Source of the DNA: Nitrospirae bacterium JdFR-81
Lineage (GTDB): Bacteria; Nitrospirota; Thermodesulfovibrionia; UBA6902
NCBI GenBank assembly: GCA_002011735.1
Contig: MTOQ01000011.1
Location: 2,761 to 66,760, forward strand
DNA length: 64,000 bases
Direction: 5' to 3'
Shown here: one piece after another, positions 734 through 20,753 of the stretch
How the letters are laid out: the number at the start of each line of letters is the position of its first letter
Position numbering within the stretch: the stretch's first letter is position 1
Position numbers and translations under genes: made by a program
Notes under the pieces: generated by a model
What the model saw: the letters and a program-made list of their open reading frames with translations, nothing else
Told to the model about the DNA's origin: nothing
Databases searched by the model: none

Positions 734-2623
734 ATGAGGAAAATAGGCTATCTTCTCATGATACTCTTACTCATATCATGTGGGAGCAACATGACCACAT
801 CCACCAACCAGGACACAGGAACGGTCAGTGCCACCGGACAGAGTGGCACGGTTGAGAGACCCCGGATCACCGTTCAGTCGATCCTCTCAAATATGGCAAG
901 GGGAGAGTATGTCAAGGGTGAGGTGCTTGTGAAGTTCAAACCTGACGCACCCTCAGGCGTTATATCCGATCTGCATCAGAGAGTTGGTGTGGCCTCAAGG
1001 AAAGTGGTTGGCACGGTGCCAAACCTTGAGCGTGTCAGGCTTCCTGAGGGCGTTTCTGTAGAGGATGCAATAATTCAATATATGTCTGATCCAAATGTCG
1101 AATATGCAGAACCAAACTATATCATTCGTACATTCACCATGCCAAATGACACATACTTCCAGCCGAATCAGTGGGCCCTGCACAACACAGGCTCCTATGC
1201 AGGTGGCACACCTGACGCTGATATAGATGCCCCGGAGGCATGGGATACAACCACAGGGAGCAGTAATATAATCATTGCCATTACTGACACGGGCGTGGAT
1301 TACAACCACCCTGACCTTGTCGGGAATATATGGATAAATGAGGATGAGGACTGTAATGAAGAGGCAGGCGCCGAGGATGACGATGACATGAATGGATATG
1401 TGAATGACTGTGTGGGATGGGACTTTACAACCTGTGAGAGATATGTCTATGACGAAGAGAATATGGAATGGATCTGTGATGAGGCCAAAGACCCGGACAG
1501 TGACCCCATGGATGAACACGGGCATGGCACACATGTAGCAGGGATCATAGGGGCAAAGGGGAACAACGCGGAGGGCATAGCAGGCGTGATGTGGAATGTG
1601 AGACTGATGGCGCTGAGCTTTCTGAATGCACAGGGCGTTGGAGACATCGAGGGTGCTGTGAATGCCATAGAGTATGCGGTATCAAACGGCGCAAGGATCA
1701 TAAATGCAAGCTGGGGGAGCTATGATTATTCCTATTCGCTATATGAAGCCATAAGCACTGCCAACAGTGCAGGGGTCCTCTTCATAGCCGCTGCTGGCAA
1801 CGAGGAGAACAACAATGATGCAGAGAGCCCATTGTATCCTGCAAGCTATAACCTGCCGAATATAATAGCCGTTGCAGCAACCGACCAGAACGACATGAGG
1901 GCACACTTCAGCAATTATGGCCTGAGTTCTGTTGATGTTGCTGCACCTGGTGTATACATATTCAGTACTGTCCCGATATGGTGGAGTGGCTATCCAGGCT
2001 ATGGAGAGGTGGAGAGGTTCTCAGGCACCTCCATGGCAGCGCCCCATGTGGCAGGCATTGCAGGACTCATCTATAGCCATTATGATGGCGTCCATAATAC
2101 CGCCTTCACCTATACACAGGTCAGGGATACGATCCTGAGATATGTGGATATCCTCCCCTCACTGCAGGGGTGGATAAAGACAGGCGGAAGGGTGAACGCC
2201 CATCTTGCTGTCGCCTCACTGCTCATACCCACAGACCTCACGGCCATAGCCCAGTCACCAACAGAGGTAACCCTCTCATGGACGGACAACGCTACCGGAG
2301 AGGACGGATACATCCTGGAAAGAAGGACCACCGACGGGAACTTCTCTGTGATCGCAGATCTACCGCCTGACACCACCACATATACTGACACAGACCTCTA
2401 CCCACTAACCACCTATATCTACAGGATAAAGGTATACAACAATATCTCTGAGTCATTCTATTCAAACGAGGTATCTGTCACAACCCCTGAGACAGAGCCA
2501 AAGAGGGGCGGAGGCGGAGGATGCTCGCTTGTGACAGGCCCATCTGATCAGCCTGTCGATATAGCAATACTCCTGATACCAGCCCTGACCATACTTATCG
2601 CGCTGCGGAGAAAGGGAAGATAA
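734..2623 (+). CDS. S8 family subtilisin-like serine peptidase. Lipoprotein-type signal, I9-like propeptide, catalytic domain with an acidic Cys-rich insert, FN3-like domain, C-terminal Gly5-Cys/TM/basic sorting tag
   Basis: Catalytic triad motifs DTGVDYNHPDL, HGTHVAG and GTSMAAPHVAG are present. The N-terminus is MRKIGYLLMILLLISCGS (lipobox). RBS AAAGGGGAAAAGG lies before the ATG. The protein ends ...KRGGGGGCSLVTGPSDQPVDIAILLIPALTILIALRRKGR. Confidence 0.9.
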   Translation: MRKIGYLLMILLLISCGSNMTTSTNQDTGTVSATGQSGTVERPRITVQSILSNMARGEYVKGEVLVKFKPDAPSGVISDLHQRVGVASRKVVGTVPNLERVRLPEGVSVEDAIIQYMSDPNVEYAEPNYIIRTFTMPNDTYFQPNQWALHNTGSYAGGTPDADIDAPEAWDTTTGSSNIIIAITDTGVDYNHPDLVGNIWINEDEDCNEEAGAEDDDDMNGYVNDCVGWDFTTCERYVYDEENMEWICDEAKDPDSDPMDEHGHGTHVAGIIGAKGNNAEGIAGVMWNVRLMALSFLNAQGVGDIEGAVNAIEYAVSNGARIINASWGSYDYSYSLYEAISTANSAGVLFIAAAGNEENNNDAESPLYPASYNLPNIIAVAATDQNDMRAHFSNYGLSSVDVAAPGVYIFSTVPIWWSGYPGYGEVERFSGTSMAAPHVAGIAGLIYSHYDGVHNTAFTYTQVRDTILRYVDILPSLQGWIKTGGRVNAHLAVASLLIPTDLTAIAQSPTEVTLSWTDNATGEDGYILERRTTDGNFSVIADLPPDTTTYTDTDLYPLTTYIYRIKVYNNISESFYSNEVSVTTPETEPKRGGGGGCSLVTGPSDQPVDIAILLIPALTILIALRRKGR

Positions 2624-2785
2624 TCGAAGCTGAAGACGGCACGGGAGAAGGCATTATATACATACGCCATCCTTCTGATCCTGGTAATCATCCACTATGC
2701 CTTCTCCCGTGGCCTTTTTAAATACCTCATCCCCCTGTTCCTCGCAGTCACCCCCTATCTGATCCAGAAAAGGGTAAATATAAGG

Positions 2786-3187
2786 GTGAATCAGAGGGAT
2801 ACCCTGATCGGCCTGCTGGTCTCGTTCATCATACTCCTACCATCTCTGGTGTATCTGATATCCCACAGCGGTGATATCACCCTGCCCTCTATGGAGGTCA
2901 TCCTCTTCCACCTCTTTATCGTCTCGATACCGGAGGAGATATACTTCAGGGGGTTTCTTCAGGAGGTCATCGGCAACAACATAAAAGGGGTCGTTATGGT
3001 GAGCGTCCTCTTCTCCATCATCCACCTGCCCAAACTCATATTTGACGGTGACTTATCCTCGGCCCTCACATTCTTCCCCTCACTCGTCATGGGCTATCTC
3101 TATATGAAGACCTCAAACATCCTCCCCTCTGTCATCTTCCACTTCACGGCAAACATCGTATTCACCATGCTCCTGCTCATCTCGTAA
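2786..3187 (+). CDS. CPBP family (CAAX protease / Abi-like) intramembrane metalloprotease. True N-terminus may lie upstream
   Basis: CPBP motifs EEIYFRG (EExxxR), FSIIHL (FxxxH) and HFTAN (HxxxN) sit in predicted TM segments. The annotated start is GTG. The same frame is open back to 2624 and encodes two further hydrophobic helices, but with no ATG/GTG/TTG. Confidence 0.7.
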   Translation: MNQRDTLIGLLVSFIILLPSLVYLISHSGDITLPSMEVILFHLFIVSIPEEIYFRGFLQEVIGNNIKGVVMVSVLFSIIHLPKLIFDGDLSSALTFFPSLVMGYLYMKTSNILPSVIFHFTANIVFTMLLLIS

Positions 3188-6100
3188 ACAGGCCCTTTAT
3201 ATCCTCCATTATCCTGTAGCCACACGGCACCAGCACAAGGGTTATCAGGGTGGCAAAGAGTACACCTGACGCAAGGGTCAGCGCCATCGGAATCAAAAAC
3301 CTTGCCTGGACACTCCTCTCCGTGATGATGGGTATGAGGCCTGCAAAGGTCGTGAGGGTTGTGAGTATAACCGGCCTGAACCTCACAGAGGTGCCCCTGA
3401 TTATCGCATCAAATGTCTCAAGGCCCTCCCTTCTCAACCTGTTTATCTCGGCAAACAGTATGAGGGAGTCATTCACCACAACACCCGACAGGCCCACCAC
3501 ACCAAAGAGGCTCATTATACTGAGGTTCATGCCCATCACCATATGACCAAAGATGGCACCTATTATCCCGAAAGGTATGGCAGACATTATCACCACAGGC
3601 TGTCCAAAGCTCCTCAGGGGTATAGCGATCAGTGTGTATATAAGGATGAGTGCTATGACAAACCCCCTCATCACATCTGCCATCGACTCCCTCTGTTCCT
3701 TGCCCTCACCTGCAATGGTATACCTGAGGCCAGGATAACGGTCTTTCAACCGTGGAAGGATGTTCTCCTCTATCTCCTTCCTCAGCTCGTTTGCATTCAT
3801 AACATTCTCATCCACCTCTGCACTCACCGTCACTATCCTCTTGCGGTCGCGTCTCGTGATGGTAACATAACTGCGAGACTTCTTTAGAACCGCAACCTCT
3901 GAGAATGGCACCTCCCTGCCGTCAGGTGTTCGGATATACATCCTCAGGAGGCTCTCAAGGTGCCTCCTCTCCTCCTCAGGATACCTCACAAGCACCTTGA
4001 CCTCATCCAGCCCCCTCTGTATCCTCAGTGCCTCAACACCATAAAAGGCCGCCCTTACCTGCTGGGCAAGCTCAGAGAGGGTTATGCCAAGGCTCCTGGC
4101 AGAGGGCCTGAGCGAAAGACGGATCTCCTCCTTACCAGGGATGTAACTGTCCTCTATATCATATACACCGGGATACCTCTTGAGCTCTGCCTTCAGATCC
4201 TCCACGGCCCTGTGCAGGGCCTCCTCATCATGCATGGTGAGGTCAAAGGAGACGGCCTTCCCTGCACTGAATAGCTCACTGTAAAAACGAACACTCTCCG
4301 CACCGTGAACCTCTCCCACCTTCTCCCTCCACATCTTTGTAACCATTGATGTGCTCAGTTCCCTGCGTTTCTCAGAACCGATCAACTGGACGATCACCTG
4401 CCCCACATGGCTCCCGCTGGGTGAGGGGCTCGTGCTACTCCGATGACCCATGGGTATCTGGGAACCGAGGATGGAGTAGGTGTATCTGATGAGTGGCTCC
4501 GAGTGATCGTTCCTCATCCTCTCAGCCTCTTTGGCTGCCTCGATGGCTGCACGCTCCACCCTCTCGATCACCCTCAGGGTCTTGCTGTATGGTGTGCCTG
4601 GTGGCATGGTCACCTCACATATCATGCGATCGCTCTCAACCTTTGGGAAGAAGGTAAACTTTATCCTTCCCCCGAACCACAGCCCCAGTGACAGGATAAG
4701 GATAGAGAGCCCTGTTGCAATGGTCAGGTATCTCCATTCAAGGGCAAGCCTGAGGCCCTTTCTGAACGGTCCCTCAACAAAACCCCTGATACAGTCTGAC
4801 ACAAACCTCTCCTTCCTGCCCTTCGTGGGAGGAACCCTTGTCCTTGCAAGATGGGCAGGTAGCACGAGCAACGCCTCGATCAGTGAGCCTGAGAGCACGG
4901 CGATCACCACTATGGGGATGTTCTTTATGACCTTTCCCATCACACCACTGCCAAGCAGTAGCGGCCAGAACGCAGCGATCGTGGTCAGCACAGAGAACAC
5001 CACGGGCACCGCAACCTCCATCGTCCCCTCCACTGCTGCACGGAATGCAGGCATGCCCTCCTCACGCTTCCTGAAGACACTCTCTCCCACCACTATCGCA
5101 TCATCCACCACTATGCCGAGCACCATGATAAAGGCAAACAGGCTTATCATGTTGATTGATACATCATAAAAGGGCAGTATGGCGAGCCCGAAGGCAAATG
5201 CTATGGGGATGCCAAGGGTGATCCAGAAGGAGAGCCTCCTGTTGAGGAATAGGCCGAGGACGAGTATTACGAGCACCATACCATAGGACATGTTCTTGAG
5301 AAGTAGCGAGAGCCTTGCCTTGAGTATCTCCGAACGATCGCCGAATGTATCGACATGGATACTTGGAGGTAGCGTTGGGCGTAATTTGGCTATATACTCC
5401 TTAACCTCTGATGCCACGGTCAGGGCATTCTCCTGCCCTATCCTGTAGACCAGTATGCCAACAGATGGAAGGCCGTTAAACCTTGAGCCCCTCTCGTGCT
5501 CCTCAAAGGTGTCCTTTATTGTGGCTATGTCCGAGAGCCTGACCTCTGCACCATCAGGCCTGCTGAGAATGACGATGTCCCTGTACTCAGATGCACGATA
5601 CCTCTTCCCCTTTGCCCTCAGCAGGATGTATCCTGCACCCTCCTTTATCTCACCACCACCAAGATCAATACTCCACCTCCTGACGGCCTGTGCAACCTCA
5701 TTAAGCGTCAGATTATACTTGCGGAGGTTCTCCTCTGGTATCTCTATAGATATCTCCGGACCGGTCACCCCGAAGAGCTCTGCCTGTGTAACATGTGGCA
5801 GTCCTGCTATATCATCCCTTATCCTCTCGGCGTATTCCTTGAGGATGTGAATCGGCGCATCACCATAAACAGCCACATTCAGCACAGGCGCCTTGAAGAC
5901 GAACTTCTTTATCACGGGCCTCTCGGCATTCTCGGGCAGTGTGGTTAAACGGTTTATCTCTGACTTTATATCATCAAACAATTTATCAACATCCCAGCCC
6001 TTTACTGCCACAACCTCTATTATGGCCACACCCTCTGATGCGTATGCATTGACCTCCTTCACCCCATCAAGCCCTGAGACGGCGTCCTCGACCTTCTTCA

Positions 6101-6296
6101 CCACCCCCTCCTCAACCTCTCCAGGAGAGGCCCCAGGATACAGGACCGTAACCGTCACCTTGTCTGCTGCGGTCTCGGGGAATATCTCGACCTTTGCGTT
6201 TATGGCCATGAGCAGGCCCACAAGCAGGACAAAGGCCATGAGGAGGTTCGCTGCCACATGATTCTCTGTAAACCACGAGATCAGTTGCCTCATCAC
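3177..6296 (-). CDS. RND family efflux transporter permease (AcrB/CzcA superfamily)
   Basis: 1039 aa with 12-TM architecture and two large periplasmic loops. Typical RND N-terminus MMRQLISWFTENHVAANLLMAFVLLVG. Overlaps the upstream MFP gene by 4 nt. Confidence 0.9.
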   Translation of the reverse strand: MMRQLISWFTENHVAANLLMAFVLLVGLLMAINAKVEIFPETAADKVTVTVLYPGASPGEVEEGVVKKVEDAVSGLDGVKEVNAYASEGVAIIEVVAVKGWDVDKLFDDIKSEINRLTTLPENAERPVIKKFVFKAPVLNVAVYGDAPIHILKEYAERIRDDIAGLPHVTQAELFGVTGPEISIEIPEENLRKYNLTLNEVAQAVRRWSIDLGGGEIKEGAGYILLRAKGKRYRASEYRDIVILSRPDGAEVRLSDIATIKDTFEEHERGSRFNGLPSVGILVYRIGQENALTVASEVKEYIAKLRPTLPPSIHVDTFGDRSEILKARLSLLLKNMSYGMVLVILVLGLFLNRRLSFWITLGIPIAFAFGLAILPFYDVSINMISLFAFIMVLGIVVDDAIVVGESVFRKREEGMPAFRAAVEGTMEVAVPVVFSVLTTIAAFWPLLLGSGVMGKVIKNIPIVVIAVLSGSLIEALLVLPAHLARTRVPPTKGRKERFVSDCIRGFVEGPFRKGLRLALEWRYLTIATGLSILILSLGLWFGGRIKFTFFPKVESDRMICEVTMPPGTPYSKTLRVIERVERAAIEAAKEAERMRNDHSEPLIRYTYSILGSQIPMGHRSSTSPSPSGSHVGQVIVQLIGSEKRRELSTSMVTKMWREKVGEVHGAESVRFYSELFSAGKAVSFDLTMHDEEALHRAVEDLKAELKRYPGVYDIEDSYIPGKEEIRLSLRPSARSLGITLSELAQQVRAAFYGVEALRIQRGLDEVKVLVRYPEEERRHLESLLRMYIRTPDGREVPFSEVAVLKKSRSYVTITRRDRKRIVTVSAEVDENVMNANELRKEIEENILPRLKDRYPGLRYTIAGEGKEQRESMADVMRGFVIALILIYTLIAIPLRSFGQPVVIMSAIPFGIIGAIFGHMVMGMNLSIMSLFGVVGLSGVVVNDSLILFAEINRLRREGLETFDAIIRGTSVRFRPVILTTLTTFAGLIPIITERSVQARFLIPMALTLASGVLFATLITLVLVPCGYRIMEDIKGLFTR

Positions 6297-7489
6297 CTGC
6301 CCTCTTCCGTCCTGACCTTCATCCCCTCTGATGCCATCGGAGGGGGTGTGAGGACCACCCTATCACCATCTTCAAGACCACCCTTTATGATGTATCCACC
6401 GTCCCTTGAACCAGCGATCTCGACCATCCTCCTCCTCAGGCCTGCCTCATCATCCACCAGCCATACAAACGGTCTGCCATCGCCTGTCCACTGAACCGCC
6501 GCCCTGTCAAGGAGCACCGCACCATTGACGACCCTCCCCTTTATCCTCACCCTCACAAATGCCCCGACAGACAGGGGTGGCATGGTGGCATAGGGATTCC
6601 TCACCACCACAACAACAGGTATGGTCCTTGTCCTCCTGTCGATGATCTCCGCCCTCTCGATCCATCCCTCCCACTCATAGGGCCTGCCACCAAACCTTGC
6701 CTCAACCTCTGCATCCGAACCCCTGCCACCCTCTGTGTTAAAGCCAGGTATCTCTATATAGCGCGTATCCCTTTCATTGAGGCTCACCCTGATCTCAACC
6801 CTCTCATCAGAGAAGACCTCGGCCACTGACTGCCCTGCCCTCAGATACTGGCCTGCGTCAAGGTTCTCCGAGATCACCACACCACTGAAGGGTGCCCTTA
6901 TCTCCGTCCTCTGAAGATCAAGCCTCGCCCTCTGAAGGGACGCCCTTGCCGCCTCAATGGCAGCCTCTGTCGCCTCTATGTCAGGTATCCTGAGGAGGAG
7001 TGGAGGGGGATCGGCACCAGGGTCCACCTCCCTCCACTCCTCCTCTGCCTCCTTTGACTCCTCCTGTAACTGATGGAGCCTCGCCTCCTGCCTCTTCAGC
7101 TCTGCCTCTGCGGCCTTCAGTGCAGCGATGTAATCCGAGTCATCGATCTTTATGAGTAGCTCGCCCTTCCTGAACCTACCGCCCCTGACCAGGTTCTCAG
7201 AGACATACAGGGCCTTCCCGGAGACCTCCGGGACGAGCTCTATCCTCCTTGATGGCTCCACCGTCCCATCGGCATCCACAAACACCCTTACAGGCCCTGT
7301 CCTGACCGTCTCGACCCTCACCAGTGGTGCCACCTCACGGGCCTCCACCCTCTCTATCCTTGGCTTTGTGGCGATAAGTCCCCTGGCTATGAGCAATCCT
7401 GTCGAGACTATGACAACAACAAGAACAAACTGTATTAATCCCTTACCCCATCCCTTCATACAAACCCTCCTTATCCGTCCATGTGCCAC
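6293..7489 (-). CDS. Efflux RND periplasmic adaptor subunit (membrane fusion protein, HlyD/AcrA family)
   Basis: 398 aa with an N-terminal TM anchor, a coiled-coil hairpin (ELKRQEARLHQLQEE...LDLQRTEIRAPFSGVV) and a beta-barrel. Sits in the operon with the RND pump and the outer-membrane factor. Confidence 0.85.
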   Translation of the reverse strand: MAHGRIRRVCMKGWGKGLIQFVLVVVIVSTGLLIARGLIATKPRIERVEAREVAPLVRVETVRTGPVRVFVDADGTVEPSRRIELVPEVSGKALYVSENLVRGGRFRKGELLIKIDDSDYIAALKAAEAELKRQEARLHQLQEESKEAEEEWREVDPGADPPPLLLRIPDIEATEAAIEAARASLQRARLDLQRTEIRAPFSGVVISENLDAGQYLRAGQSVAEVFSDERVEIRVSLNERDTRYIEIPGFNTEGGRGSDAEVEARFGGRPYEWEGWIERAEIIDRRTRTIPVVVVVRNPYATMPPLSVGAFVRVRIKGRVVNGAVLLDRAAVQWTGDGRPFVWLVDDEAGLRRRMVEIAGSRDGGYIIKGGLEDGDRVVLTPPPMASEGMKVRTEEGR

Positions 7490-8840
7490 CGAGGGCCCTG
7501 TAGAGGAATACCCTGTTTGTCAATATCCCTGTCTCGACGTCAATAAGCCTCTCCCTGGTCTGGAACAGCCTCCTCTCAAGCTCAAGCACCCTCAGCAGGT
7601 CAACGAGCCCCCTCTGATACCTCGACATGGAGACATCATATGTCTTCTTGACCTGTTTAAGTAACCCCATGAGGCGATCCCTCTCCTCATAAAGCCTCTG
7701 CCTCTTCATCAAAGCATTCTCCACCTCGTAGAACGCCTGAAGCACCGTCTTTGCATAAGAGATGATCGCCTGACGATACCTTGATAGTGCCGCCTCCTCC
7801 GAGGCCCTGAGCCTGCCTGCATCGAACAGGGGGGTGAGTATCCCTGCCGAAACCTGCCATATCACGCTCTCGGGCCTGAAGAGGCTGTGAAGTGCATCGC
7901 TTGACCAGCCGTATCTACCCGTAAGGGTTATCTGTGGAAACCTCTTTGCCCTCGCCACCTTGAGCTCCTCAAAGACAGCCTCCATCCGTGCCCTCTCCTC
8001 CCTCAGATCAGGCCTCCTGAGCAGGAGGTCTGATGGAAGCCCTGCACCGATCGGCTCCAGTCTGCCAATATAATCGGCATCTATATCCCCCAGCTCTATC
8101 TCATCAGGATACCTGCCTGCTATGATGGATATCCTCTGCGATAGCTCCATCGCCTGTCTCCTGAGCGCAGGGACCGCCACCTCTGCCTCTGACAACTGGG
8201 TCTCTGCCTGGAGCAGATCCAGATAGGACGCAAGGCCCCTCCTGTATCGGCCCTTGATAATCCTGAGCGTCCTCTTAAGATTCTGGACCCTCAGGTGTGC
8301 AAGCTCGATCTTCCTCTCAAGGCCGATCCTCTGGAAATAGAGGCCCACAAGGTCTGCAATCACCGTGTGGATGACCGTCCTCCCTGCCTCCATCGAGGAG
8401 ACCAGCCTCTCACGGGATGCCCTTTCGGCAGAAGAGAGCCTCCCCCAGATGTCAAGCTCATACGAGGCAACAGGGGTGAGGCTGAATGCATCGAAGATGT
8501 ATGAACCACCCTGAGGCATGGAGAGAGACTGCCTCTGCCTGCTCAGGTCTGCCTGGAGATTGACGGTTGGGAATAGGTCAGCCCTGCTTATACCAAGACC
8601 TGCCCTTGCCTCGATCACCCTCTCGGTGGCAAGACGGATGTCATGGTTGCTCTGCAGGGCCTCCTCAACCAGCCCATCCAGCACAGGGTCGTTGAAGTCC
8701 TGCCACCACCTGCTCAGCTCAGGCGCCGTGCCTGATGGTGCATTCTTAAATGCCCCTGGGACATCAACCCCTGCCTCCTCCCTCACAACATGGGCACACC
8801 CGATGATCACCAGTATCAATAAGACCGACAGGTATCTCAT
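7443..8840 (-). CDS. Efflux outer-membrane factor lipoprotein (TolC/NodT family)
   Basis: 465 aa with lipoprotein signal MRYLSVLLILVIIGCAH and two tandem TolC-type coiled-coil repeats. First gene of the tetR-adjacent efflux operon. Confidence 0.85.
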   Translation of the reverse strand: MRYLSVLLILVIIGCAHVVREEAGVDVPGAFKNAPSGTAPELSRWWQDFNDPVLDGLVEEALQSNHDIRLATERVIEARAGLGISRADLFPTVNLQADLSRQRQSLSMPQGGSYIFDAFSLTPVASYELDIWGRLSSAERASRERLVSSMEAGRTVIHTVIADLVGLYFQRIGLERKIELAHLRVQNLKRTLRIIKGRYRRGLASYLDLLQAETQLSEAEVAVPALRRQAMELSQRISIIAGRYPDEIELGDIDADYIGRLEPIGAGLPSDLLLRRPDLREERARMEAVFEELKVARAKRFPQITLTGRYGWSSDALHSLFRPESVIWQVSAGILTPLFDAGRLRASEEAALSRYRQAIISYAKTVLQAFYEVENALMKRQRLYEERDRLMGLLKQVKKTYDVSMSRYQRGLVDLLRVLELERRLFQTRERLIDVETGILTNRVFLYRALGGTWTDKEGLYEGMG

Positions 8841-9460
8841 CTCTCCTCACCCATAAGACCGAATAGTGAAAAACTGACGATGTGCTCTATGAGGGTATCA
8901 ATAAAACCCTCGTCAAACCTCCTGCCTGTCACCCTGCTTATCATATTCCTTGAGAGATTGAAGTGCATGACCTGTGCGATGATGCTGAGGACATAAAGCA
9001 TCTGCTCATCCCTCTGTGTGCCCTCAGGCATGTACGGCCTGAGGAGCCCGATAAGGGCATTGAAGAACGGCATCACCACCTCGGAGTGGAATATCTCGAA
9101 TGCCTCGGTGGGCCTGCTGGCCTCCCTTGCCATCAGTTTATGATGCAGGAGCCTCTCCCTCTCAGAGAACGGGCTTTTAAGAAACGCCCTTGCAAGGGCC
9201 CTGATCACCCTCCTGGCATCAGGCCTCCTTTCGCCCTCAAGCTCCCTCCAGAAGGCCTCCTGGACCTTCCTCACCCTGCCCACCATCTTCTCCCTGAAGA
9301 CGGCAAGATAGAGCCCCTTTTTGCTGCCGAAATAGTAATTGATCGAGGCAACATTACAGCCTGCCTTCCCTGTTATCTCACGCACGCTCACACCCTCAAA
9401 GCCCTTCTCTGCAAAGAGCCTCTCGGCGGTATCCAGTATCCTCTGCCTTGCGGTCTTCAC
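8837..9460 (-). CDS. TetR/AcrR family transcriptional regulator
   Basis: N-terminal HTH MKTARQRILDTAERLFAEKGFEGVSVREITGKAGCNVASINYYFGSKKGLY. GTG start. Lies directly upstream of the efflux operon, with a 4-nt overlap. Confidence 0.85.
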   Translation of the reverse strand: MKTARQRILDTAERLFAEKGFEGVSVREITGKAGCNVASINYYFGSKKGLYLAVFREKMVGRVRKVQEAFWRELEGERRPDARRVIRALARAFLKSPFSERERLLHHKLMAREASRPTEAFEIFHSEVVMPFFNALIGLLRPYMPEGTQRDEQMLYVLSIIAQVMHFNLSRNMISRVTGRRFDEGFIDTLIEHIVSFSLFGLMGEER

Positions 9461-9749: not shown

Positions 9750-12700
9750 TCAGGGATTTACAGTAACCTCAACGCTGTCATAGTATCCCTGACCGAGATT
9801 CAGTATGCAGTTCATGTTCATGTCCACGCCGAAGTAGAAGATGTATGTCCCTGACGGCATAACAGGTCCAAGCGGTAGCTGGGGCTCTGGGGCTGCTGTT
9901 GTGTTGAGGACAACAAAGTCACTCACACTGAAGAGCGGGGCCTGGTGTGAACATATCATCCCTGGCAGCCATAAATCGGTGACCGGATCATAGTAATACC
10001 AGCCCATTGGTGTGCTCACCAGCATCCACCAGTCTGCAGGGTCACCAGCCTTGCTTCCAGGATCAAGGCTGACGGTCACCACCAGCGGGTCTCCGGGGTT
10101 GAGTGTCACAGGGCCGTCTGAGTTATTCGCCTTTATGTCAGGAGCAGGGTCAAGCGGGTCAAACTGGGCCGTGCAGGTCAGGTCTGTGCTCATGGTCACA
10201 TTACAGGTCGTATTCGTACCACATGGAGCACAGTCCCCGCCCCATCCTGCGAATGTTGAGCCTGCGTCAGGGTTGGCTGTGAGGGTCACATCTGTATTAA
10301 GTGGATAGGATTCACTGCAATCAGCACCACAGTCAATGCCTCCGTCATTGCTCGTGACCGTTCCGGTGCCTCCACCTGTCAGATTCACCGTAAGGGTATA
10401 CTGCGGTGCTACACTCGTGCCCTTCAGTATGACCTCGAAGACAGGCTCGTCAGGGTCATTTGAGTTTATATACAGGAAGTATGGATCAAAGACACCCTCA
10501 TATGTCGGGTTGAAGTAGACCGTCACGGTGCAGGAAGAACCTCCAGAAAGTGAGTTGCCTGTACAGTTGTCCTCTGATATACCGAACGGGAAGCCAGGGT
10601 TGTCTATAGAGGTTATGGTCAGGACGTCACCGCCTGCATTTGTAATCGTAAGGATCTCATAATTGGTTGTATAAAGATCAACCGTGCCGAAGTCAATAGT
10701 TGTAGGGGTTACATCTATATCAGGGAAGAGGACACCATTACCTGTCAGGTTAACGGTTACAGTTGGTTCATCAGGGTCATCGGAGTTTATCACTATGTTT
10801 GATGATGTGGTGCCCTCGGATGTTGGAGCAAACTCTACCACGATCTGACAGCTACTACCCACACCAAGAACAGATGGTGCGAGCGGACAATTGTTGCTCA
10901 CAATGCTGAATGGTGCAACAGGTGGTGTGATGGAATTGATGGTCAGGTCAGCGGTCCCATCGTTGCTCACTGTGATCGTCTGCTGGCTACTATCACCCAC
11001 TGAGACATCTCCAAAGTCCACTGACGATGGGGTTACCGTGATGTCCTGGGCGCCAAGGCCTGTTCCAGCAAGTGGGACATCAAGGTCAGGTGTATCTGGA
11101 TCATTGGAATGGATGGTAAACTGTGAGTTGAATGTTCCTGCTGACAGCGGTGTGAAACGGACCACTATGTCGCACGTTGAGCCTGCCGCGACGTCCTGGC
11201 CAGAGCATCCATCAGAGTATATGGAGAATGGACTGCTGGGGCTGTCGATGGAGCTTATCCTGAGTGTTGCGAGCCCCAGGTTCTGGACAGTAAAGGTCTT
11301 CTCCCCATAGCTACCAACATAGACATTGCCAAAGTCCCATGTGGTTGGATCAATGGCGATATCGGCCTCTATTGCAAGGGCAGAGAGGTTGACCTGCGGG
11401 TTCCCACTGTTCGACTCTATTATGAAGCACTTGTTATATGTGCCACCTGCTAGGGGTGTGAACCTCACTGTAAGGGTGAGCTCTGCCCCTGGGACGAGGT
11501 CTATGGTCGTGTTTGGGTCACCATCTGAGAGCTCTGACGGGAGGCCATCAAAGGAGAACGGCGAGAGGTCTGTCTGCGTGCCACCACACGTCATGTCAAT
11601 CTCGGAGATCATCAGGGTCGTATCGCCTGTGCTGCGGATCTTGAAGGACTGGGTTGCATAGTCACCAACCGCCACACTGCCACTTCCTGGTGGATTCTCA
11701 AAGTCATCAAGCAGTGGTGGTGTGAGCGGGGTGTCATCCATGTTGAGGAGCGTGAGGGATGGTTGCTGTAGCGTGAATAGCTGGCCATAGACATCAGAGC
11801 CACACGGGTCGGAGCCTGTTCCAGGGCCATCTGTTGCACTGCATGTGGAGTCGTCGGCATTCCTTGCGTCCTTCCACACGGCAAGGAACTGCTGTAGATT
11901 GTCATCGTATGCAATGGCCGGATAATACTGGTTGGATGGGAGGGTGAACACCGCATAGTTGTTACCCCTCAGCGAGCCCTCTGCATCCACCTTCTGGCCG
12001 AATATGTCAAGGTTTTCAAGTGAGAGGGTGCTGTTTCGGCCGTCCTGCCACACCACAAAGAACCTCTGCTCTGCGTTGTCGTAGGAGACGAAGGGCTTTG
12101 TCTGTTTTGAGCTGGCAACATTGTCGTCCTGCTGGCCGTCTCCGTCCGTGTCCTGATAGGAGATTATGAAGTTATCGTTGTATAGTCCGCCACCTGAATA
12201 GAGTATCTGGCCGTATATCTTCGTGTTCGGGCCATCCCTCATGTCCTCCCACGCAACCAGGAACCTGTCTGTTATGGGATCAAAGCCTATCGATGGATAA
12301 TAGCCGTTTAAGGGGTTCGTGCTATCTATCATCGTGGAGTTTATAACACCCACATATATATCATCATTAAACAGCCCGTATATGTGGGTGAGCCCGTCGT
12401 CGTAGTCCGAGGTGGTGAATGTGCTCGTCACAGTTTCGCCGAGATCGCAGACATCGTTATTATTGCTATCCTCACAGCTACATGTGAGCACGCCCTTTCC
12501 GCGCCTTCCCTCCCAGGCCATAAGTGTGGCAGGTGATGTGGTGTCAGAGGCAACGGTTATGTTGTTGATGTTTGTGAAGTATTCGTATGTGTATTTCTCA
12601 ACAAGGCCTGTGCTACTGGAGGATATGAGCCTGTTTGTGCGGGTCAGGCCGTTCCTTATGATGTCAGCACCTGTTACGCCAAGGTCATTCGTAACATCTG

Positions 12701-13961
12701 CAAGGGTGTCGCCATCGAGCATCACATAGCCGGGGAATGAGCGGTCTCCGAACGACCAGGAGACAGGCATAAAGCCAAAGCAGAGCTCGGAGATCCTGTT
12801 GAGGATGTCTCTTGACTCTATCCATACGATCCAGAACCTGTCGTTTACAGGGTCATAGGAGACCCTTGGCCTTCTCCTTGAACGGAGCTCGTCACCAACC
12901 GATCCGGTTGTTGGAGGCCAGGGATTATAATATGAATAATACACCCCGATAGGATCGTCATCATCAGGAGGATTATCAAAGCTCACTCCAACAAACCCGC
13001 TTTCATAGTAGATATCTCCTGACCCATCACCTGTAAAACCGCCATTTCCATCATCTATAAGGGTCTGTGTCCCGTCAGTAACTACGACGGTGCCAGGGAC
13101 AAGTGGTCTATTCGAAAGGACACCACTGAAAGCCTTTGTGCTACCATTACCTGTCCCTATCGTCTCTTCATAGTAGGAATAATCTGCCGTGATATTAGCA
13201 CCATTTGGAGGGGCTGAATCAAAGGTGATGTTGAAAATGCCTGTTGAATAACCTATTATCCCCGAGCCATTGCCTGTAAAACCGCTGTTTCCATCGTCCG
13301 TGAGGGTCTGTGTGCCGTCGGTTATGGTAACAGAGCCTGGGACAATATCTTGATTTGCGAGTATCCCTGAAAAAGCACGCTGAGTCCCATTCCCTGTCCC
13401 TATAGACTCTCCTGTCACAGATATCGTTCCAACAGATGTGGTTGAATACCCATACTTCTCGATCTGATTATACCCCACAGGGGTCTCGGGGCCTACAGTG
13501 TAGCTTCCTGCACTACAGGTGCCATCCAGGGTGGTTACATCTATGTCTCTATAATAGACATATCCCCCTGTGGCATTACCCCTTGTATCCTGCCAGACTA
13601 TGAGGATCTTGCTATCCTCGGTGGGACTGAAAAGCTCCCCGTTCCTGTAGGCAGCGGTCGGTGCTGTCTGATTGCCTGTGGCATTGGTTATTATAATCTC
13701 GTCCCCGCAGAATGTGCCGTCTCCATTCATGAACCTTGCCCTTATGTCAGCCCCTGTTGTGGCCGTATCCCTCCAGTCCTCCCACACAACGAAGTAGAGG
13801 TTCTTATCAGGGAGGTAGATGACCTGTGGGTTCTGCTGGTCATAGGAGACTATTGAGATGGGTATGTTGTCGCCAACATAGCCTGCATGGGCATAAAGGG
13901 GTAATAGTATGGCTATAATGGATAATGCCAGTGATAGTATCATTAGATTTCTCTTCATCAT
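9750..13961 (-). CDS. Giant secreted repeat protein (1403 aa). Signal peptide; N-terminal half with six copies of a ~45-aa xYDxxNxxF(L/V)VVWxDxR repeat and an internal tandem duplication; four choice-of-anchor D / ASH-type beta-sandwich domains; an InlB B-repeat-like domain
   Basis: Signal peptide MMKRNLMILSLALSIIAILLPLYAHA. Four repeats of the pattern DFG.V.VG....TI.N.G...L.I.SI..P..PFSI....C......G.SC.IVV.F.P...G......I.SNDPD. One InlB-B-like segment YTLTVNLTGGGTGTVTSNDGGIDCGADCSESYPLNTDVTLTANPDAGSTFAGWGGDC. No C-terminal anchor. Confidence 0.85.
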   Translation of the reverse strand: MMKRNLMILSLALSIIAILLPLYAHAGYVGDNIPISIVSYDQQNPQVIYLPDKNLYFVVWEDWRDTATTGADIRARFMNGDGTFCGDEIIITNATGNQTAPTAAYRNGELFSPTEDSKILIVWQDTRGNATGGYVYYRDIDVTTLDGTCSAGSYTVGPETPVGYNQIEKYGYSTTSVGTISVTGESIGTGNGTQRAFSGILANQDIVPGSVTITDGTQTLTDDGNSGFTGNGSGIIGYSTGIFNITFDSAPPNGANITADYSYYEETIGTGNGSTKAFSGVLSNRPLVPGTVVVTDGTQTLIDDGNGGFTGDGSGDIYYESGFVGVSFDNPPDDDDPIGVYYSYYNPWPPTTGSVGDELRSRRRPRVSYDPVNDRFWIVWIESRDILNRISELCFGFMPVSWSFGDRSFPGYVMLDGDTLADVTNDLGVTGADIIRNGLTRTNRLISSSSTGLVEKYTYEYFTNINNITVASDTTSPATLMAWEGRRGKGVLTCSCEDSNNNDVCDLGETVTSTFTTSDYDDGLTHIYGLFNDDIYVGVINSTMIDSTNPLNGYYPSIGFDPITDRFLVAWEDMRDGPNTKIYGQILYSGGGLYNDNFIISYQDTDGDGQQDDNVASSKQTKPFVSYDNAEQRFFVVWQDGRNSTLSLENLDIFGQKVDAEGSLRGNNYAVFTLPSNQYYPAIAYDDNLQQFLAVWKDARNADDSTCSATDGPGTGSDPCGSDVYGQLFTLQQPSLTLLNMDDTPLTPPLLDDFENPPGSGSVAVGDYATQSFKIRSTGDTTLMISEIDMTCGGTQTDLSPFSFDGLPSELSDGDPNTTIDLVPGAELTLTVRFTPLAGGTYNKCFIIESNSGNPQVNLSALAIEADIAIDPTTWDFGNVYVGSYGEKTFTVQNLGLATLRISSIDSPSSPFSIYSDGCSGQDVAAGSTCDIVVRFTPLSAGTFNSQFTIHSNDPDTPDLDVPLAGTGLGAQDITVTPSSVDFGDVSVGDSSQQTITVSNDGTADLTINSITPPVAPFSIVSNNCPLAPSVLGVGSSCQIVVEFAPTSEGTTSSNIVINSDDPDEPTVTVNLTGNGVLFPDIDVTPTTIDFGTVDLYTTNYEILTITNAGGDVLTITSIDNPGFPFGISEDNCTGNSLSGGSSCTVTVYFNPTYEGVFDPYFLYINSNDPDEPVFEVILKGTSVAPQYTLTVNLTGGGTGTVTSNDGGIDCGADCSESYPLNTDVTLTANPDAGSTFAGWGGDCAPCGTNTTCNVTMSTDLTCTAQFDPLDPAPDIKANNSDGPVTLNPGDPLVVTVSLDPGSKAGDPADWWMLVSTPMGWYYYDPVTDLWLPGMICSHQAPLFSVSDFVVLNTTAAPEPQLPLGPVMPSGTYIFYFGVDMNMNCILNLGQGYYDSVEVTVNP
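12921..13433 (-). repeat. Intragenic tandem duplication (2 x ~255 nt, ~85 aa each) inside the giant protein gene
   Basis: Protein residues ~177-266 and ~267-347 are near-identical in pattern: IGTGNG(T/S).(R/K)AFSG(I/V)L.N...VPG(S/T)V.(I/V)TDGTQTL.DDGN.GFTG.GSG.I.Y..G. The DNA copies are visibly similar (for example GTAAAACCGCCATTTCCATCATC versus GTAAAACCGCTGTTTCCATCGTC). Confidence 0.7.
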
Positions 13962-14076: not shown

Positions 14077-16236
14077 TTATTGTATATTGAGTGTTGCAGT
14101 TGTCTGCCTCCAGTCTGTTGTATCAAGCACCGTTATGGTAACGGTGCCGGTGGCAAGACCCTCTGCGGTGAATGAGCTTCCGCCCGTGTAGGTGATCTGC
14201 ACTGCAGACGGTAGATCAACGAATATCTGGAACGGTGGGTTACCACCGAATACAGTGAATGTCACGCTGTCACCCACATTTATCGTCACATTCTGCGGCA
14301 TTATGAAGAAGTCTGTCGGATTCACTATCACCGTGACGGTGGTGCTGTTGCCGAATGCATCGACCACGGTGAGGAGCACGGTCGTTGCCGTGGCCACTGA
14401 GTCAGGATCGATCGTGAATGTGTTACCGCTTACGGTCTGGTTCGGTATGATGTTCTGATAGTCTGATATCACCTCATACGGTGCCGTGCCACCATATATG
14501 GTGAACAGGATATCGTCTGTTGGATCTGTATCAGGGTTCTTTATACCGACCACACTCACCTGTGACGGTATCACCTCTATCGTGGTTTCAACCTTCAGAA
14601 CAAGGGTTGCTGTAGCTGATGAACCAAAGGCATCATATACCGTTATTGTTACGGTGGTGTTTTTGGTCGGGACGGCCTCAACTGTGGCAGTCAGTGTTGA
14701 GCCCGAGACATTCACACTCACCAGTGATGGGTTGTCGCTGTATGCTGCATAGGGCTCGACACCACCGAGTATGGTGTAGGTTGCCGTATCGCCAACCTGC
14801 GGGTTTGAGATGGTCTGGGACTCAGGTATTATCTTCAGCTCCTCGACCTGTGTAACGATATTCAGGGTGGCGGTAACAGAGGTCATTGCAGAATCTACTA
14901 TCGTGTAGGTCACGGTGGTATCAGGCGTTGCAGGGTCAACCGTAACCGTGAATGTCCCGCCACTCTCGGTGACACTCGATGGATTTGGCGGGAACTGAGG
15001 ATCATCAGAGAATATGGTGTAGGGTGGTATGCCTCCGTATATGGTATATGTGGCTGTCCCACCTGTTACGCCGTTGATGGTCTGGCTTTCTGGGAAGACC
15101 ATGAGGTCTGGGCTCACTGTCACATCAACCGTGCCGATAACCTCACCCCGCACCGTGGCGGTTATGGTACATACGCCTGGCACCTGTGGTGCTGTGAATG
15201 TTGCCTGTGCAACACCGCCTGTTGTCTGTGCAAAGGGTGTGACATAGCCACAGGGATCAGGATCGGTATCGGTCGCGGGTGAGACGGAGAAGTTGACGGT
15301 GAGGCCATCAAACACCGGCTCACCTGTATTCAGAAATATGATCGCGGTAATGGTGGATTCGCCCCCCGGGGCCACCACAGAGGGGCTTGCTGTAAGGTGT
15401 GAGAGGGTGGTGCTTATCTCGACAGGATTGAGGAAGAGTGAGATCATGTTTGCAGCACCAACCCCATCAACATACGGTGCAGAGGCATATATATTAAAGA
15501 AGGTAACGGTCTCCCTCAGTGAGAGGGGTATGGCCTTTATGAGTATCTTTGCCTGGCCATCGGTGTTGGTGGTGATATTACCGCTCCAGTCGGCTGATAT
15601 CTCAAACTGGTCAACCTGCCAGAGTATGGGCTCTCCTGCTGCCGGGGTGCCCCACCTGTTGTAGACCGTGGCGAGTATCTCTGCACTATCGTCATACGGG
15701 TTCTCAAAGAGGTAAAAATCGGACTCCTCATTATAAATCCCATTTCCAGGGAGGCTATCGACATCAAGGGTCAAATATGGCAATAGATATATATCCGTAT
15801 CGCTTGAGGTGAAGTAAACGGTCTTCCTGTCCCTCACCTTTCCTGTGCCTGAATCCACCTCGGCAAGGATGGTGATGAAACCAGGCTCGGAAGAGAAGAG
15901 CCTCATCGTCGCATAACCATATCCATCGGTGTATGCAACGGTGGAGCTCGACCTGACAGAGACCCCGCCCTGAGCGGTTATCGTGCCCTTCTGAGAGAGG
16001 TTCGTAAAGACAACAGGCACACCCGAAACCGGGCTGCCGTTGCCGTCAAGAACCCTTGCCTTGAAATAGAGGGAGGAGTTCGTCTGTGCAACATACTGGA
16101 GGGGCAGCAGTCTGACAATGGACGCTATCCCTGTGTTGACACCAGGAGGTGCACTTGAGGAACTCGTGCCACCTCCACAGCCTGCAAGAAATGCTGTAAG
16201 GATTATCAATGTTATCAATAATATGCCCTTTTTCAT
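14077..16236 (-). CDS. Cell-surface lipoprotein with an invasin-like Big_1 domain and at least four tandem Ig-like repeats (Y.I.GG.(P/A)PY motif)
   Basis: Lipobox LITLIILTAFLAGCGGG. Repeats include PESQTINGVTGGTATYTIYGGIPPYTIF, IPESQTISNPQVGDTATYTILGGVEPYAAY, FTIYGGTAPYEVIS and FTVFGGNPPFQIF. Lies 13 nt downstream of the preceding lipoprotein gene. Confidence 0.8.
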   Translation of the reverse strand: MKKGILLITLIILTAFLAGCGGGTSSSSAPPGVNTGIASIVRLLPLQYVAQTNSSLYFKARVLDGNGSPVSGVPVVFTNLSQKGTITAQGGVSVRSSSTVAYTDGYGYATMRLFSSEPGFITILAEVDSGTGKVRDRKTVYFTSSDTDIYLLPYLTLDVDSLPGNGIYNEESDFYLFENPYDDSAEILATVYNRWGTPAAGEPILWQVDQFEISADWSGNITTNTDGQAKILIKAIPLSLRETVTFFNIYASAPYVDGVGAANMISLFLNPVEISTTLSHLTASPSVVAPGGESTITAIIFLNTGEPVFDGLTVNFSVSPATDTDPDPCGYVTPFAQTTGGVAQATFTAPQVPGVCTITATVRGEVIGTVDVTVSPDLMVFPESQTINGVTGGTATYTIYGGIPPYTIFSDDPQFPPNPSSVTESGGTFTVTVDPATPDTTVTYTIVDSAMTSVTATLNIVTQVEELKIIPESQTISNPQVGDTATYTILGGVEPYAAYSDNPSLVSVNVSGSTLTATVEAVPTKNTTVTITVYDAFGSSATATLVLKVETTIEVIPSQVSVVGIKNPDTDPTDDILFTIYGGTAPYEVISDYQNIIPNQTVSGNTFTIDPDSVATATTVLLTVVDAFGNSTTVTVIVNPTDFFIMPQNVTINVGDSVTFTVFGGNPPFQIFVDLPSAVQITYTGGSSFTAEGLATGTVTITVLDTTDWRQTTATLNIQ

Positions 16237-19063: not shown

Positions 19064-19067
19064 TATC

Positions 19068-19595
19068 TTAACCCTCCTTATGGAGCTCTAAAACCACCTC
19101 TCTGGGTTTTTTATTTCCTTTGTAATCAATGGTATATTCTACAATTACAACCCTATCCCTTGAAATCTCTTTAACCTTGCCATTATGGAGACCTATCGTG
19201 TCTCCCTCATTGACGGTAAAGGACTTATTGTCAGGTGCAAGGAGCAGGGCGTAATACCTGTCCCTCTTCTTCACGATCGCAAGCAGTGAGAAATCCCCTA
19301 TATCATAACTCTCAAGGGTTCCAGGGGGCCTTTTCGCCTCCTCAGCACCCTTGGCTTCCCTTCGCAATACGATAAGGGGTGCAAACGGGTCTCTCCTGCC
19401 TGCAGGATTATATACATAACCCTCACTCTTTTTAACCGGCTCCTCTGTCAGGGGCTTCAGTTCCTCGGGCTTAATCTCTATCTCCTTCTTAACCTCGGCC
19501 TTCTTCTTTGGTGGAGGAGGCTTCTTCTTACTACACCCTGAAAAGGGAAGGCCAAGCGCCACTATTATGAAAATAAAGATTAAGTATCTCCCCAT
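19068..19595 (-). CDS. pilP: Type IV pilus assembly lipoprotein PilP
   Basis: 175 aa with lipobox LGLPFSGCSKKK, a Pro/Lys-rich linker and a C-terminal beta domain. Position between pilO and pilQ. Confidence 0.7.
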   Translation of the reverse strand: MGRYLIFIFIIVALGLPFSGCSKKKPPPPKKKAEVKKEIEIKPEELKPLTEEPVKKSEGYVYNPAGRRDPFAPLIVLRREAKGAEEAKRPPGTLESYDIGDFSLLAIVKKRDRYYALLLAPDNKSFTVNEGDTIGLHNGKVKEISRDRVVIVEYTIDYKGNKKPREVVLELHKEG

Positions 19596-19600
19596 TATAC

Positions 19601-20212: not shown

Positions 20213-20216
20213 TTTA

Positions 20217-20753
20217 TCACCTCATCCTGAAGGAAATCCGAAACTCATATAGTGTATAACCCTCGAAGGTCTTCATCCTCGACTCAAGCAATGTAACATC
20301 CGTAAAATACTTGGAATTTTTGAGATTCTGGACATAATCCACGATATTCGGGTTTGTAAATGCAGTGCCCTGGATATTTATGGTTCCTCCATTGTCACTC
20401 AGGCTCTGGAGCCACACACCCTGTGGCAGTCTGGCACTCACTTCATCCAGAAGTCTGAGGGGCAATACCTGCCTGCTCTTGAGATCCTCTATCGTCCTTG
20501 CCATCTGCCTGTAAAGTTCGTTATCCCGCTCAAAGCTCTCGACCTGTTTGATGGCATCCTTTATCTCATTGAGCCTCTTCTCCTTCTCCGCCTTCTCGGC
20601 CTTAAGGGTGGTGATGTTGCTGTTCAGACTGAATGTATAGATACCAAGGACAACGAGGGTTATCACCGTGAGGGCCACGGCAGGGATAATAACCGCCTGA
20701 AGTGGCATGGCCTTCTTAACCTTTCTCTCTTTGAGCAGGTTTATCCTGATCAT
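20217..20753 (-). CDS. pilN: Type IV pilus assembly protein PilN
   Basis: 178 aa. MIRINLLKERKVKK, then a TM segment, then a coiled coil. The canonical PilN N-terminus (INLL motif). Overlaps pilM by 4 nt. Confidence 0.8.
   Translation of the reverse strand: MIRINLLKERKVKKAMPLQAVIIPAVALTVITLVVLGIYTFSLNSNITTLKAEKAEKEKRLNEIKDAIKQVESFERDNELYRQMARTIEDLKSRQVLPLRLLDEVSARLPQGVWLQSLSDNGGTINIQGTAFTNPNIVDYVQNLKNSKYFTDVTLLESRMKTFEGYTLYEFRISFRMR

Follow-up and report, generated by a model that had tools for sequence, protein, structure and literature searches.

A Gly-Cys-Ser C-terminal tag beside a CPBP-family protease: a candidate myxosortase-type sorting cassette of Thermodesulfovibrionia

In a 64-kb stretch of the genome of Nitrospirae bacterium JdFR-81 (contig MTOQ01000011.1; hereafter the window, meaning the whole stretch of 64,000 nucleotides that was analysed), the gene of an S8 (subtilisin-family) peptidase carrying a glycine-rich, cysteine-containing C-terminal tag is followed on the same strand by the gene of a CPBP-family, Rce1-like intramembrane protease. 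It is probable that the two genes form a myxosortase-type sorting cassette, specific to Thermodesulfovibrionia/Nitrospirota, in which the CPBP protein would cut the tail of the peptidase. The observations behind this reading come from the window and from 16-kb loci, and comprise a tripartite tag with an invariant Gly-Cys-Ser motif, an apparently competent enzyme of the Rce1 fold, adjacency in both search directions, varied clients and neighbourhoods of the type II secretion system (T2SS). A first-pass annotation of the window, made from its sequence, had already proposed a Cys tag paired with a dedicated CPBP protein as an undescribed variant of the MYXO-CTERM/myxosortase type, and this proposal is supported by the two-way adjacency and by the ranking of curated models.

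The tagged peptidase and its pairing with a CPBP protease

The client protein is a precursor composed of a lipoprotein-type signal peptide, a propeptide, a catalytic domain, an fn3 domain and the C-terminal sorting tag, with the coordinates given in Table 1. Pfam assigns residues 53-128 to Fervidolysin_NPro-like, residues 177-470 to Peptidase_S8 (PF00082; 201 bits, above threshold, with the Asp/His/Ser triad present) and residues 499-582 to fn3. In the alignment of 50 tagged relatives, the triad columns DTG, HGTH and GTSMA are nearly invariant, with a conservation of at least 90%, and the Cys-Gly column of the lipobox is nearly invariant as well; a lipobox-like motif lies within the first 40 residues in 111 of the 120 best S8 homologues. 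Both ends of the precursor carry Cys signals, the N-terminal LISC (734-781) and the C-terminal Cys tag (2507-2620), and these two anchors may act in turn.

The protein ends in ...PETEPKRGGGGGCSLVTGPSDQPVDIAILLIPALTILIALRRKGR, directly followed by the stop codon, and its tail is ordered as GGGGGCS, polar spacer, membrane helix and RRKGR; the Gly-Cys motif, the helix and the basic end are as the first-pass annotation had read them. Across 50 tails, two positions of the window tail are invariant, G14 and C16 (the Gly two residues before the Cys and the Cys itself), while the Gly directly before the Cys, G13 and the Ser after the Cys are conserved in at least 90%. The helix bears a D-x6-P pattern, with the Asp at its start and the Pro (P35) seven residues on, each present in at least 90% of the tails. 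The consensus across loci reads GGGGGCS(I/V)GARQNxPTAxADxAVLLxPL...RRRR; the spacer in the window is shorter than the family consensus spacer IGARQNTPTAxA, a short form that it has in common with its nearest relatives.

A profile of such tails (glycine-rich with Cys, membrane helix, Arg/Lys end) had been suggested as a check, and it was built from the 50 tails and run against the ends of 9,230 six-frame open reading frames (ORFs). With 43-87 bits, all true tails stand far above the highest-scoring unrelated ORF tail (12 bits), and because the profile separates the two so cleanly, the tail is more than a chance pattern. The peptidase of the window, with 52 bits, is the sole tagged protein in its 64 kb. 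Among the 50 tag carriers near CPBP genes, 47 are S8-fn3 proteases with 43-58% identity to the window peptidase and the remaining three are Ig-repeat proteins (ASH/HYDIN/Cep192-type, He_PIG), and in two metagenome loci the tag is borne by a Vgb_lyase-type propeller. The tag is modular, being found on three unrelated protein architectures. It stands at the very C-terminus in 117 of the 120 best S8 homologues, the other three of which look truncated. A search of a 5.8-billion protein set with the tail alignment returned short fragments only, a selection that favours short proteins, and no census is taken from it.

A different tail was seen in a Thermodesulfobacteriota locus (L079), about 4 kb from a CPBP gene of a distant clade, where a 527-residue ORF (2210-3793) ends in ...TTTGGGCTISSDAGAGNTSQGTIFNLLLIMSALLAVSWKNPLKAV. 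It has a Gly-Cys motif and then a helix, but scores 9.8 bits on the tag profile, and it may be a remote variant of the tag or a chance resemblance.

The pairing was followed from both sides. Starting from the enzyme, with one genome per species, 80 loci with a CPBP relative were collected, and a tagged protein of about 580-1,090 residues is encoded within approximately 1.2 kb of the CPBP gene in half of them (40/80); as a rule it stands immediately upstream on the same strand, and often another tagged gene adjoins the CPBP gene downstream. In a neighbour-joining tree of the CPBP cores, 35 of the 36 Nitrospirota genome loci in the core clade, to which the window belongs, show a tagged neighbour, and the 36th is cut by a contig end, with only 313 nucleotides upstream. 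An intermediate, Thermodesulfovibrio-like group is mixed in this respect, and in the Thermodesulfobacteriota/Dadabacteria clade none of the 23 loci has a tagged neighbour. The three closest relatives of the window (73-77% identity) retain the S8-CPBP pair though their outer flanks differ (L084 compared to L085 and L086), and the pair is also kept in convergent orientation in four other loci (L111, L114, L117 and L045). The co-occurrence with invariant-Cys tripartite tags that is expected of a myxosortase family is found here.

Starting from the tag, 12 consensus-type tails led to 48 metagenome loci, with 44 tagged ORFs having enough flank; a CPBP gene lies within 1 kb in 24 of these 44, three of them convergent, a test biased to the consensus form of the tag because only consensus-type tails were used. 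The window has one tagged gene, many loci have two or three around one CPBP gene, and one contig has two tagged genes 15 kb apart. The earlier description of substrate and enzyme as an adjacent gene pair holds for the adjacency but not as strictly one substrate for each enzyme, given the two or three tagged genes per locus and the further S8 paralogues linked to the T2SS.

A separate arrangement was noticed around distant CPBP proteins. In loci L060-L083 (e.g., L067, 2669-3175), a distant CPBP protein of 202 residues, from the Thermodesulfobacteriota/Dadabacteria clade without tagged neighbours, is always preceded by a conserved membrane protein of 417-439 residues (422 in one case) ending in ...GYRYALDFYPF...WYKLY, which is a different and uncharacterised conserved pair.

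The CPBP gene, its start codon and its fold

As first described, the gene next to the peptidase carries the three CPBP motifs, and its product belongs to the Rce1-like family PF02517 with 66.5 bits against a threshold of 22.4; the catalytic patterns EExxxR, FxxxH and HxxxN are invariant in 21 CPBP relatives. The distance between the two genes had been given as either 162 or 0 nucleotides, and both values are correct: the mechanical ORF runs from GTG 2786 to 3187 (133 residues), 162 nucleotides after the S8 stop, and the reading frame, which is that of the S8 gene, is open from the first base after this stop. Public gene calls are inconsistent here, as identical contigs have been called with 133 and with 98 residues and relatives with 140-143. 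Such models of 98-143 residues would be truncated forms of an enzyme of about 185 residues, because its start is most likely a CTG codon.

From the S8 stop to 2786, the window contains neither ATG nor GTG nor TTG. The called internal start is the earliest such codon in L085 and L086 as well, and L084 has one TTG inside the first helix. Meanwhile, a CTG lies 6 nucleotides after the S8 stop in the window and in all three relatives (window 2621-2632; L084 5875-5886; L085 5860-5871; L086 4193-4204), where the stops are TAA, TAA TAA or TAG, and it is preceded in all four by AAGGRAAGATA, the codons of the RRKGR cluster. These purine-rich codons (AGAAAGGGAAGA) are located approximately 10 nucleotides before the proposed start and may double as the ribosome-binding site of the CPBP gene. 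Of 35 loci of the subclade, 33 use CTG (or, in two to three of them, TTG) for the Leu located six residues ahead of the K in 'KALYTY', a count that overstates the number of independent events because the loci are related, compared to a background share of 36% for CTG and TTG together among the Leu codons of the same genes. Most of these conserved CTG/TTG codons stand 1-26 nucleotides after the client stop. Sister subclades have an ordinary ATG or GTG start three residues further downstream ('MKKKAL...').

The extended region also behaves as coding sequence: compared to L085, 26 of its codons differ non-synonymously and 11 synonymously, with neither of the other two frames open, and in the model its 52 upstream codons encode two helices of the Rce1 fold, the full product forming a complete 8-helix fold. 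The gene is most likely 2630-3187, with a CTG start and 185 residues, and ribosomes that finish translation of the client gene probably initiate at this CTG. The 'very small' CPBP protein of the first-pass annotation would then be an artefact of gene calling.

Two other readings of the gene were rejected. A short protein starting at GTG 2786 does not agree with the conservation of the 52 upstream codons at the protein level and with the two helices that they form. A fusion of S8 and CPBP by stop-codon read-through is countered by the two tandem TAA codons in L084, by the sister clades that start with ATG or GTG, and by the reading frames, which are the same for both genes in the window, L084, L085 and L086 but differ or overlap in most other loci. 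No terminator-like site was found between the S8 and CPBP genes in the window.

In a profile search of 1.84 billion representatives, 38 proteins were found at E<=1e-30 and 285 at E<=1e-10, of 5,363 CPBP-like ones, with a steep drop of the scores from about 120 to about 80 bits; judged by these scores, the clade is a compact and distinct subfamily. Its members, with 165-200 residues, are encoded in metagenome-assembled genomes (MAGs) of Thermodesulfovibrionia/Nitrospirota. Public records name them 'CPBP family intramembrane glutamic endopeptidase' or 'YdiL', and the tagged S8 relatives only 'S8 family serine peptidase', 'subtilisin family serine protease' or 'hypothetical protein'. As these names of clients and enzymes are generic, existing annotation is blind to the system: it overlooks the tag and truncates the enzyme, and new curated models would correct hundreds of records.

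By structure, the CPBP protein is matched best by SpdC, which has the CPBP fold and serves as a non-proteolytic partner. This match raises the alternative that the tail is a permanent, uncleaved anchor and the CPBP protein a partner, regulator or immunity factor, like SpdC or the Abi proteins, which is considered unlikely, as all catalytic residues are invariant, the invariant Cys at the membrane edge is a hallmark of cleaved Cys-type tags, and the link to the T2SS described below implies that the clients leave the inner membrane. Moreover, the same Gly-Cys-Ser tag is present beside the CPBP gene on unrelated clients that are not proteases, and because these share the tag, a tag-directed enzyme fits better than a protease-specific regulator.

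Type II secretion, mechanism and surrounding genes

The 20 tagged ORFs of the metagenome scan that have no CPBP gene nearby share another neighbourhood. Their recurrent neighbours are GspC with T2SSC and PDZ domains (12 loci), the secretin GspD (8 loci) and the ATPase GspE (5 loci), and the gene of an Ig-like (Big_1) lipoprotein is often found upstream of these tagged S8 genes. Most of these 20 head a T2SS operon and form another group of tagged S8 paralogues, placed upstream of gspC-gspD-gspE (8-12 loci; Table 1). In a Nitrospiraceae MAG (L044, 4544-16322), a CPBP homologue (7950-8534) is encoded inside the T2SS operon, between gspD and gspE, in the order gspC-gspD-CPBP-gspE-gspF-gspG, pseudopilins, gspJ and gspL; a tagged gene is lacking within 8 kb of this homologue. 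Since tagged S8 genes head T2SS operons and a CPBP gene lies within one, tag, enzyme and T2SS are linked pairwise, the same three partners that one would expect from the MYXO-CTERM and Synerg-CTERM systems.

In the GspD secretins of these operons, the last 80 or so residues form a domain ('...GELLVKFK...VEYAEPNYIMKMQ') that is homologous to the S8 propeptide (Fervidolysin_NPro-like, 40-51 bits) and occupies the place of the S-domain of classical secretins. It may serve to dock the protease or to inhibit it. We know of no description of a secretin with such an end.

The neighbourhoods of the tagged genes without a CPBP gene also bear on the reading that the tag is served by some other sorting enzyme whose gene lies elsewhere (rhombosortase, exosortase/archaeosortase or another protease), the adjacency of the CPBP gene being incidental. 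Judged by the 64-kb window and the 16-kb loci, this reading is very improbable. Its case consists of these 20 of 44 tagged genes and of the Gly run, which superficially resembles GlyGly-CTERM; their recurring neighbours, however, are T2SS components and the Ig-like lipoprotein, with no rhomboid family and no other intramembrane protease among them (a dedicated search for rhombosortase was not part of the analysis), and CPBP and tagged genes adjoin in every informative core-clade locus. In addition, GlyGly-CTERM (TIGR03501) has no match at E<=1 on the window tail or on the 50 related tails, and PEP-CTERM has none of any weight among these 50. The GlyGly-CTERM/rhombosortase and PEP-CTERM/exosortase readings were rejected for this absence of model support. 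Of the hybrid of GlyGly-CTERM and MYXO-CTERM features seen at first in the tail, the Cys/MYXO-type affinity is retained and the GlyGly-CTERM part is lost.

Several points weigh against a sorting cassette as proposed. For about 15 CPBP relatives of the Thermodesulfovibrio-like group, the search out to 8 kb gave no tagged gene, and 20 of 44 tagged genes have no CPBP gene within 1 kb on the flanks available. Since the clients are for the most part paralogues from a single S8 family and a single phylum, the conserved synteny could be partly inherited and not selected. The closest structural counterpart of the enzyme, SpdC, is not proteolytic in its role, the CTG start derives only from conservation, and all NCBIfam scores of the two window proteins fall below the curated cut-offs.

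For such a cassette, the S8 precursor would leave the cytoplasm through Sec and stay anchored in the inner membrane by the tag helix, with RRKGR on the cytoplasmic side, as the tripartite architecture suggests. The invariant Cys597 would then be modified, probably lipidated by a housekeeping enzyme, by analogy with MYXO-CTERM, and the adjacent CPBP protein would cut just after this residue, removing the helix and the basic tail, a step to which the conserved adjacency and the proven action of MrtX both point. The mature protease, held by its C-terminus, would be moved onto the surface of the cell by the T2SS, consistent with the neighbourhood links observed. As the N-terminal lipobox is followed by a propeptide that can be removed, it is the C-terminal anchor that would keep the active enzyme on the cell. 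Finally, a CTG start just after the client stop would result in a low expression of the CPBP protein, coupled to the translation of its client.

A broader proposal, put forward as possible and with clear reservation, is that these elements make up an undescribed surface-display module of Thermodesulfovibrionia. It would comprise S8 proteases tagged with Gly5-Cys-Ser (and a few Ig-repeat or propeller proteins), a CTG-started CPBP protein of a new, myxosortase-like subfamily whose output is tied to and far below that of its substrate, and a dedicated T2SS in which the propeptide-ended secretin could dock or inhibit the protease during export.

The pair described here would add a compact, adjacent combination of tag and enzyme, from a deep-branching and mostly uncultured phylum, to the handful that have been defined. 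Its client is an easily assayed protease, and its neighbourhoods connect the tag with both the enzyme and type II secretion. A cassette this small lends itself well to reconstitution in E. coli, which would bear on the modifier of the Cys, the exact cut and the recognition by the T2SS for the whole class. The conserved CTG start at the client stop, the CPBP gene within a T2SS operon and the secretins ending in a copy of the protease propeptide were unplanned additions to the analysis.

Table 1. Features of the tagged peptidase, its neighbouring protease, the next genes and the T2SS-linked loci (window positions unless a locus is given)
Feature	Position	Strand	Remarks
S8 (subtilisin-family) peptidase precursor, 629 aa, client protein	734-2623	+	ORF and Pfam
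Lipobox-like motif L-I-S-C, end of signal peptide (Cys16)	770-781	+	Read from the N-terminus MRKIGYLLMILLLISCGS
Signature motif GGGGG-C-S of the tag	2507-2527	+	Sequence; first Gly at 2507, Cys597 = TGC at 2522-2524
Polar spacer LVTGPSDQP	2528-2554	+	Tail alignment
Transmembrane helix of the tag, VDIAILLIPALTILIAL	2555-2605	+	Tail alignment
Basic cluster RRKGR, then TAA stop	2606-2623	+	Sequence
Proposed full gene of the CPBP/Rce1-like glutamic intramembrane protease, myxosortase type, 185 aa	2630-3187	+	Putative start at the conserved CTG
CPBP motif 1, EEIYFRG (catalytic Glu-Glu, Arg)	2933-2953	+	E, E, F, R and G invariant in 21 family members
CPBP motif 2, FSIIHL	3011-3028	+	F and H invariant in 21 family members
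CPBP motif 3, HFTAN	3140-3154	+	H and N invariant in 21 family members
RND efflux pump	3177-6296	-	Then MFP 6293-7489, OEP 7443-8840, TetR 8837-9460
Tagged S8 directly upstream of a T2SS operon	L091, L094, L103, L105, L106, L112, L115, L116		gspC (PDZ), gspD, gspE
GspD with propeptide-like end	L116 6194-8536; L044 5454-7712; L091 6296-8614
GspD with propeptide-like end	L103 6169-8436; L106 1338-3596; L115 2683-4899

Downstream, the 3' end of the CPBP gene overlaps that of the convergent RND efflux pump gene by 11 nucleotides (3177-3187), and no terminator-like site was found at this overlap. Beyond the efflux genes, the window encodes a 1,403-residue protein of HYDIN/ASH/DUF1573 Ig-like repeats (9750-13961, minus strand), with domain types as in some of the tagged clients that are not S8 proteases, and adjoining it a 719-residue Big_1/Invasin_D3 lipoprotein (14077-16236, minus strand); the tag is absent from both, which end in ordinary sequence. 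Ordinary chromosomal regions follow at 16973-21838, 21939-24718, 28947-32129 and 44409-60334 on the minus strand and at 62210-63223 on the plus strand. Among the window genes are a type IV pilus cluster, with pilQ (AMIN domains), pilP and pilM confirmed by Pfam, as well as trkH/trkA, rpoD, dnaG, uvrD, glmS, glmU, argH, ftsZ/ftsA and a tyrosine recombinase, the genes after ftsZ/ftsA presumably being the dcw cluster. A pilus secretin cluster is also located near the S8-CPBP pair in the close relatives L085 and L086.

Comparison with known sorting systems

Four Cys-containing tripartite signals (MYXO-, JDVT-, Synerg- and CGP-CTERM) have been described together with their cognate Rce1-like proteases, and cleavage of Cys-type tags by these proteases was proposed in 2023 (bioRxiv 10.1101/2023.06.07.544157) and proven for MrtX in 2025 (PMC11980579). 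MrtX cleaves MYXO-CTERM in a Cys-dependent manner, also in E. coli, and the surface sorting of its clients needs the T2SS (PMC11980579). The general principle of tag and protease is, then, already published, and what is new here is the particular family of tag and enzyme and its lineage; a literature search found no paper on such a system in Nitrospirota.

Against the curated models (NCBIfam release 20), all top matches of the CPBP protein are myxosortases: MrtS with 65.3 bits (cut-off 130), Mrt_core (NF040914) with 62.7 (100) and MrtP with 56 (250), followed by MrtC with 47 (195), MrtJ with 45.3 (75) and MrtX (NF040593) with 31.5 (180). Mrt models are also the best-ranked ones for all 21 CPBP relatives, none of which reaches any Mrt cut-off. 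As these scores are sub-threshold, the assignment to the family rests on ranking and not on a passed threshold. For the tail (a query of 47 residues), the only match is JDVT-CTERM, with 20.4 bits compared to a cut-off of 27. Among the 50 related tails, 23 match JDVT-CTERM and eight MYXO-CTERM; ten representatives score 0-25.1 bits on JDVT-CTERM and none of them passes, while one of the 50 (E=1.2e-6) is probably just above the cut-off. Tails of the window sub-form (CS(L/I)xxG...D..P.D) have 19-25 bits on JDVT-CTERM, and those of the consensus form hardly any, reaching up to 19.2 bits on MYXO-CTERM (cut-off 20). Of the family models that had been named as checks on the two proteins, PF02517 is passed, and neither MYXO-CTERM (TIGR03901) nor GlyGly-CTERM matches the window tail.

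The JDVT-CTERM/MrtJ system (NF033191/NF033192) is the nearest to the window tail. Both have a single invariant Cys, an Asp and a Pro in the helix region and an Arg/Lys end, and in both a dedicated CPBP protease directly adjoins its client. The hallmark of JDVT is a near-invariant Asp-Pro nine residues after the Cys (bioRxiv 10.1101/2023.06.07.544157); this is missing here, as positions +8 to +10 of the window tail read D, Q and P and the family has its D-x6-P further downstream. A run of five Gly before the Cys, the Ser after it and clients that are overwhelmingly S8 proteases are further differences. In addition, JDVT typically has one client per genome, from which the present system may differ, with two or three clients often found around one CPBP gene (one in the window) and further ones at the T2SS operon, and its lineage is Pseudomonadota, that of the present tag Nitrospirota.

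The Synerg-CTERM/MrtS system (TIGR04564/NF040589) shares a Gly/Ser-rich cluster that ends abruptly in an invariant Cys, an association with the T2SS and, in MrtS, the best-scoring model of the CPBP protein, although at half of its cut-off. Synerg-CTERM belongs to Synergistota, has no match at E<=1 among the 50 tails and lacks a spacer between Cys and helix, unlike the 9-13 polar residues found here.

These likenesses could mean that the window holds a plain case of JDVT-CTERM/MrtJ or Synerg-CTERM/MrtS and nothing new, a reading that appears quite unlikely. The adjacency of client and protease is that of the JDVT system, whose model is the only one to match the window tail, rises to 25.1 bits in its nearest relatives and is probably just passed by one tail, and MrtS heads the matches of the enzyme. 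Against these stand the cut-offs of JDVT-CTERM, MrtJ and MrtS, all above the scores of the window, and the failure of all 21 relatives at any Mrt cut-off; the replacement of the Asp-Pro by D-x6-P; the better scores of consensus tails on MYXO-CTERM than on JDVT-CTERM; and the lineage, the several clients per enzyme and the spacer already mentioned. Public records, moreover, offer only generic S8 and CPBP names. Because the scores are below the cut-offs, the tag and its CPBP protein are better seen as a new variant of the Cys-tag/myxosortase kind, within no described subfamily.

With MYXO-CTERM (TIGR03901; MrtX, MrtC and MrtP, NF040593, NF040594 and NF040674), the proposed system shares a Cys-dependent cut by an Rce1-like protease and a surface display that depends on the T2SS. 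Myxosortase is a housekeeping enzyme with dozens of unlinked clients, whereas the enzyme here is encoded beside its client or clients; the CPBP protein also has a different N-terminal region, and the tag has only one Cys. The type II CAAX proteases Rce1 and MmRce1 (PF02517; PDB 4CAD) are more distant, having 15% sequence identity to the CPBP protein and a substrate of three residues (AAX), unlike the long C-terminal helix and tail presumed here. Taken by sequence, the tag belongs to the Cys-type class and to none of its described members. This would bring the Cys-type tags to five, the new one being a Nitrospirota tag that has an Mrt-like enzyme subfamily of its own and S8 proteases as main clients.

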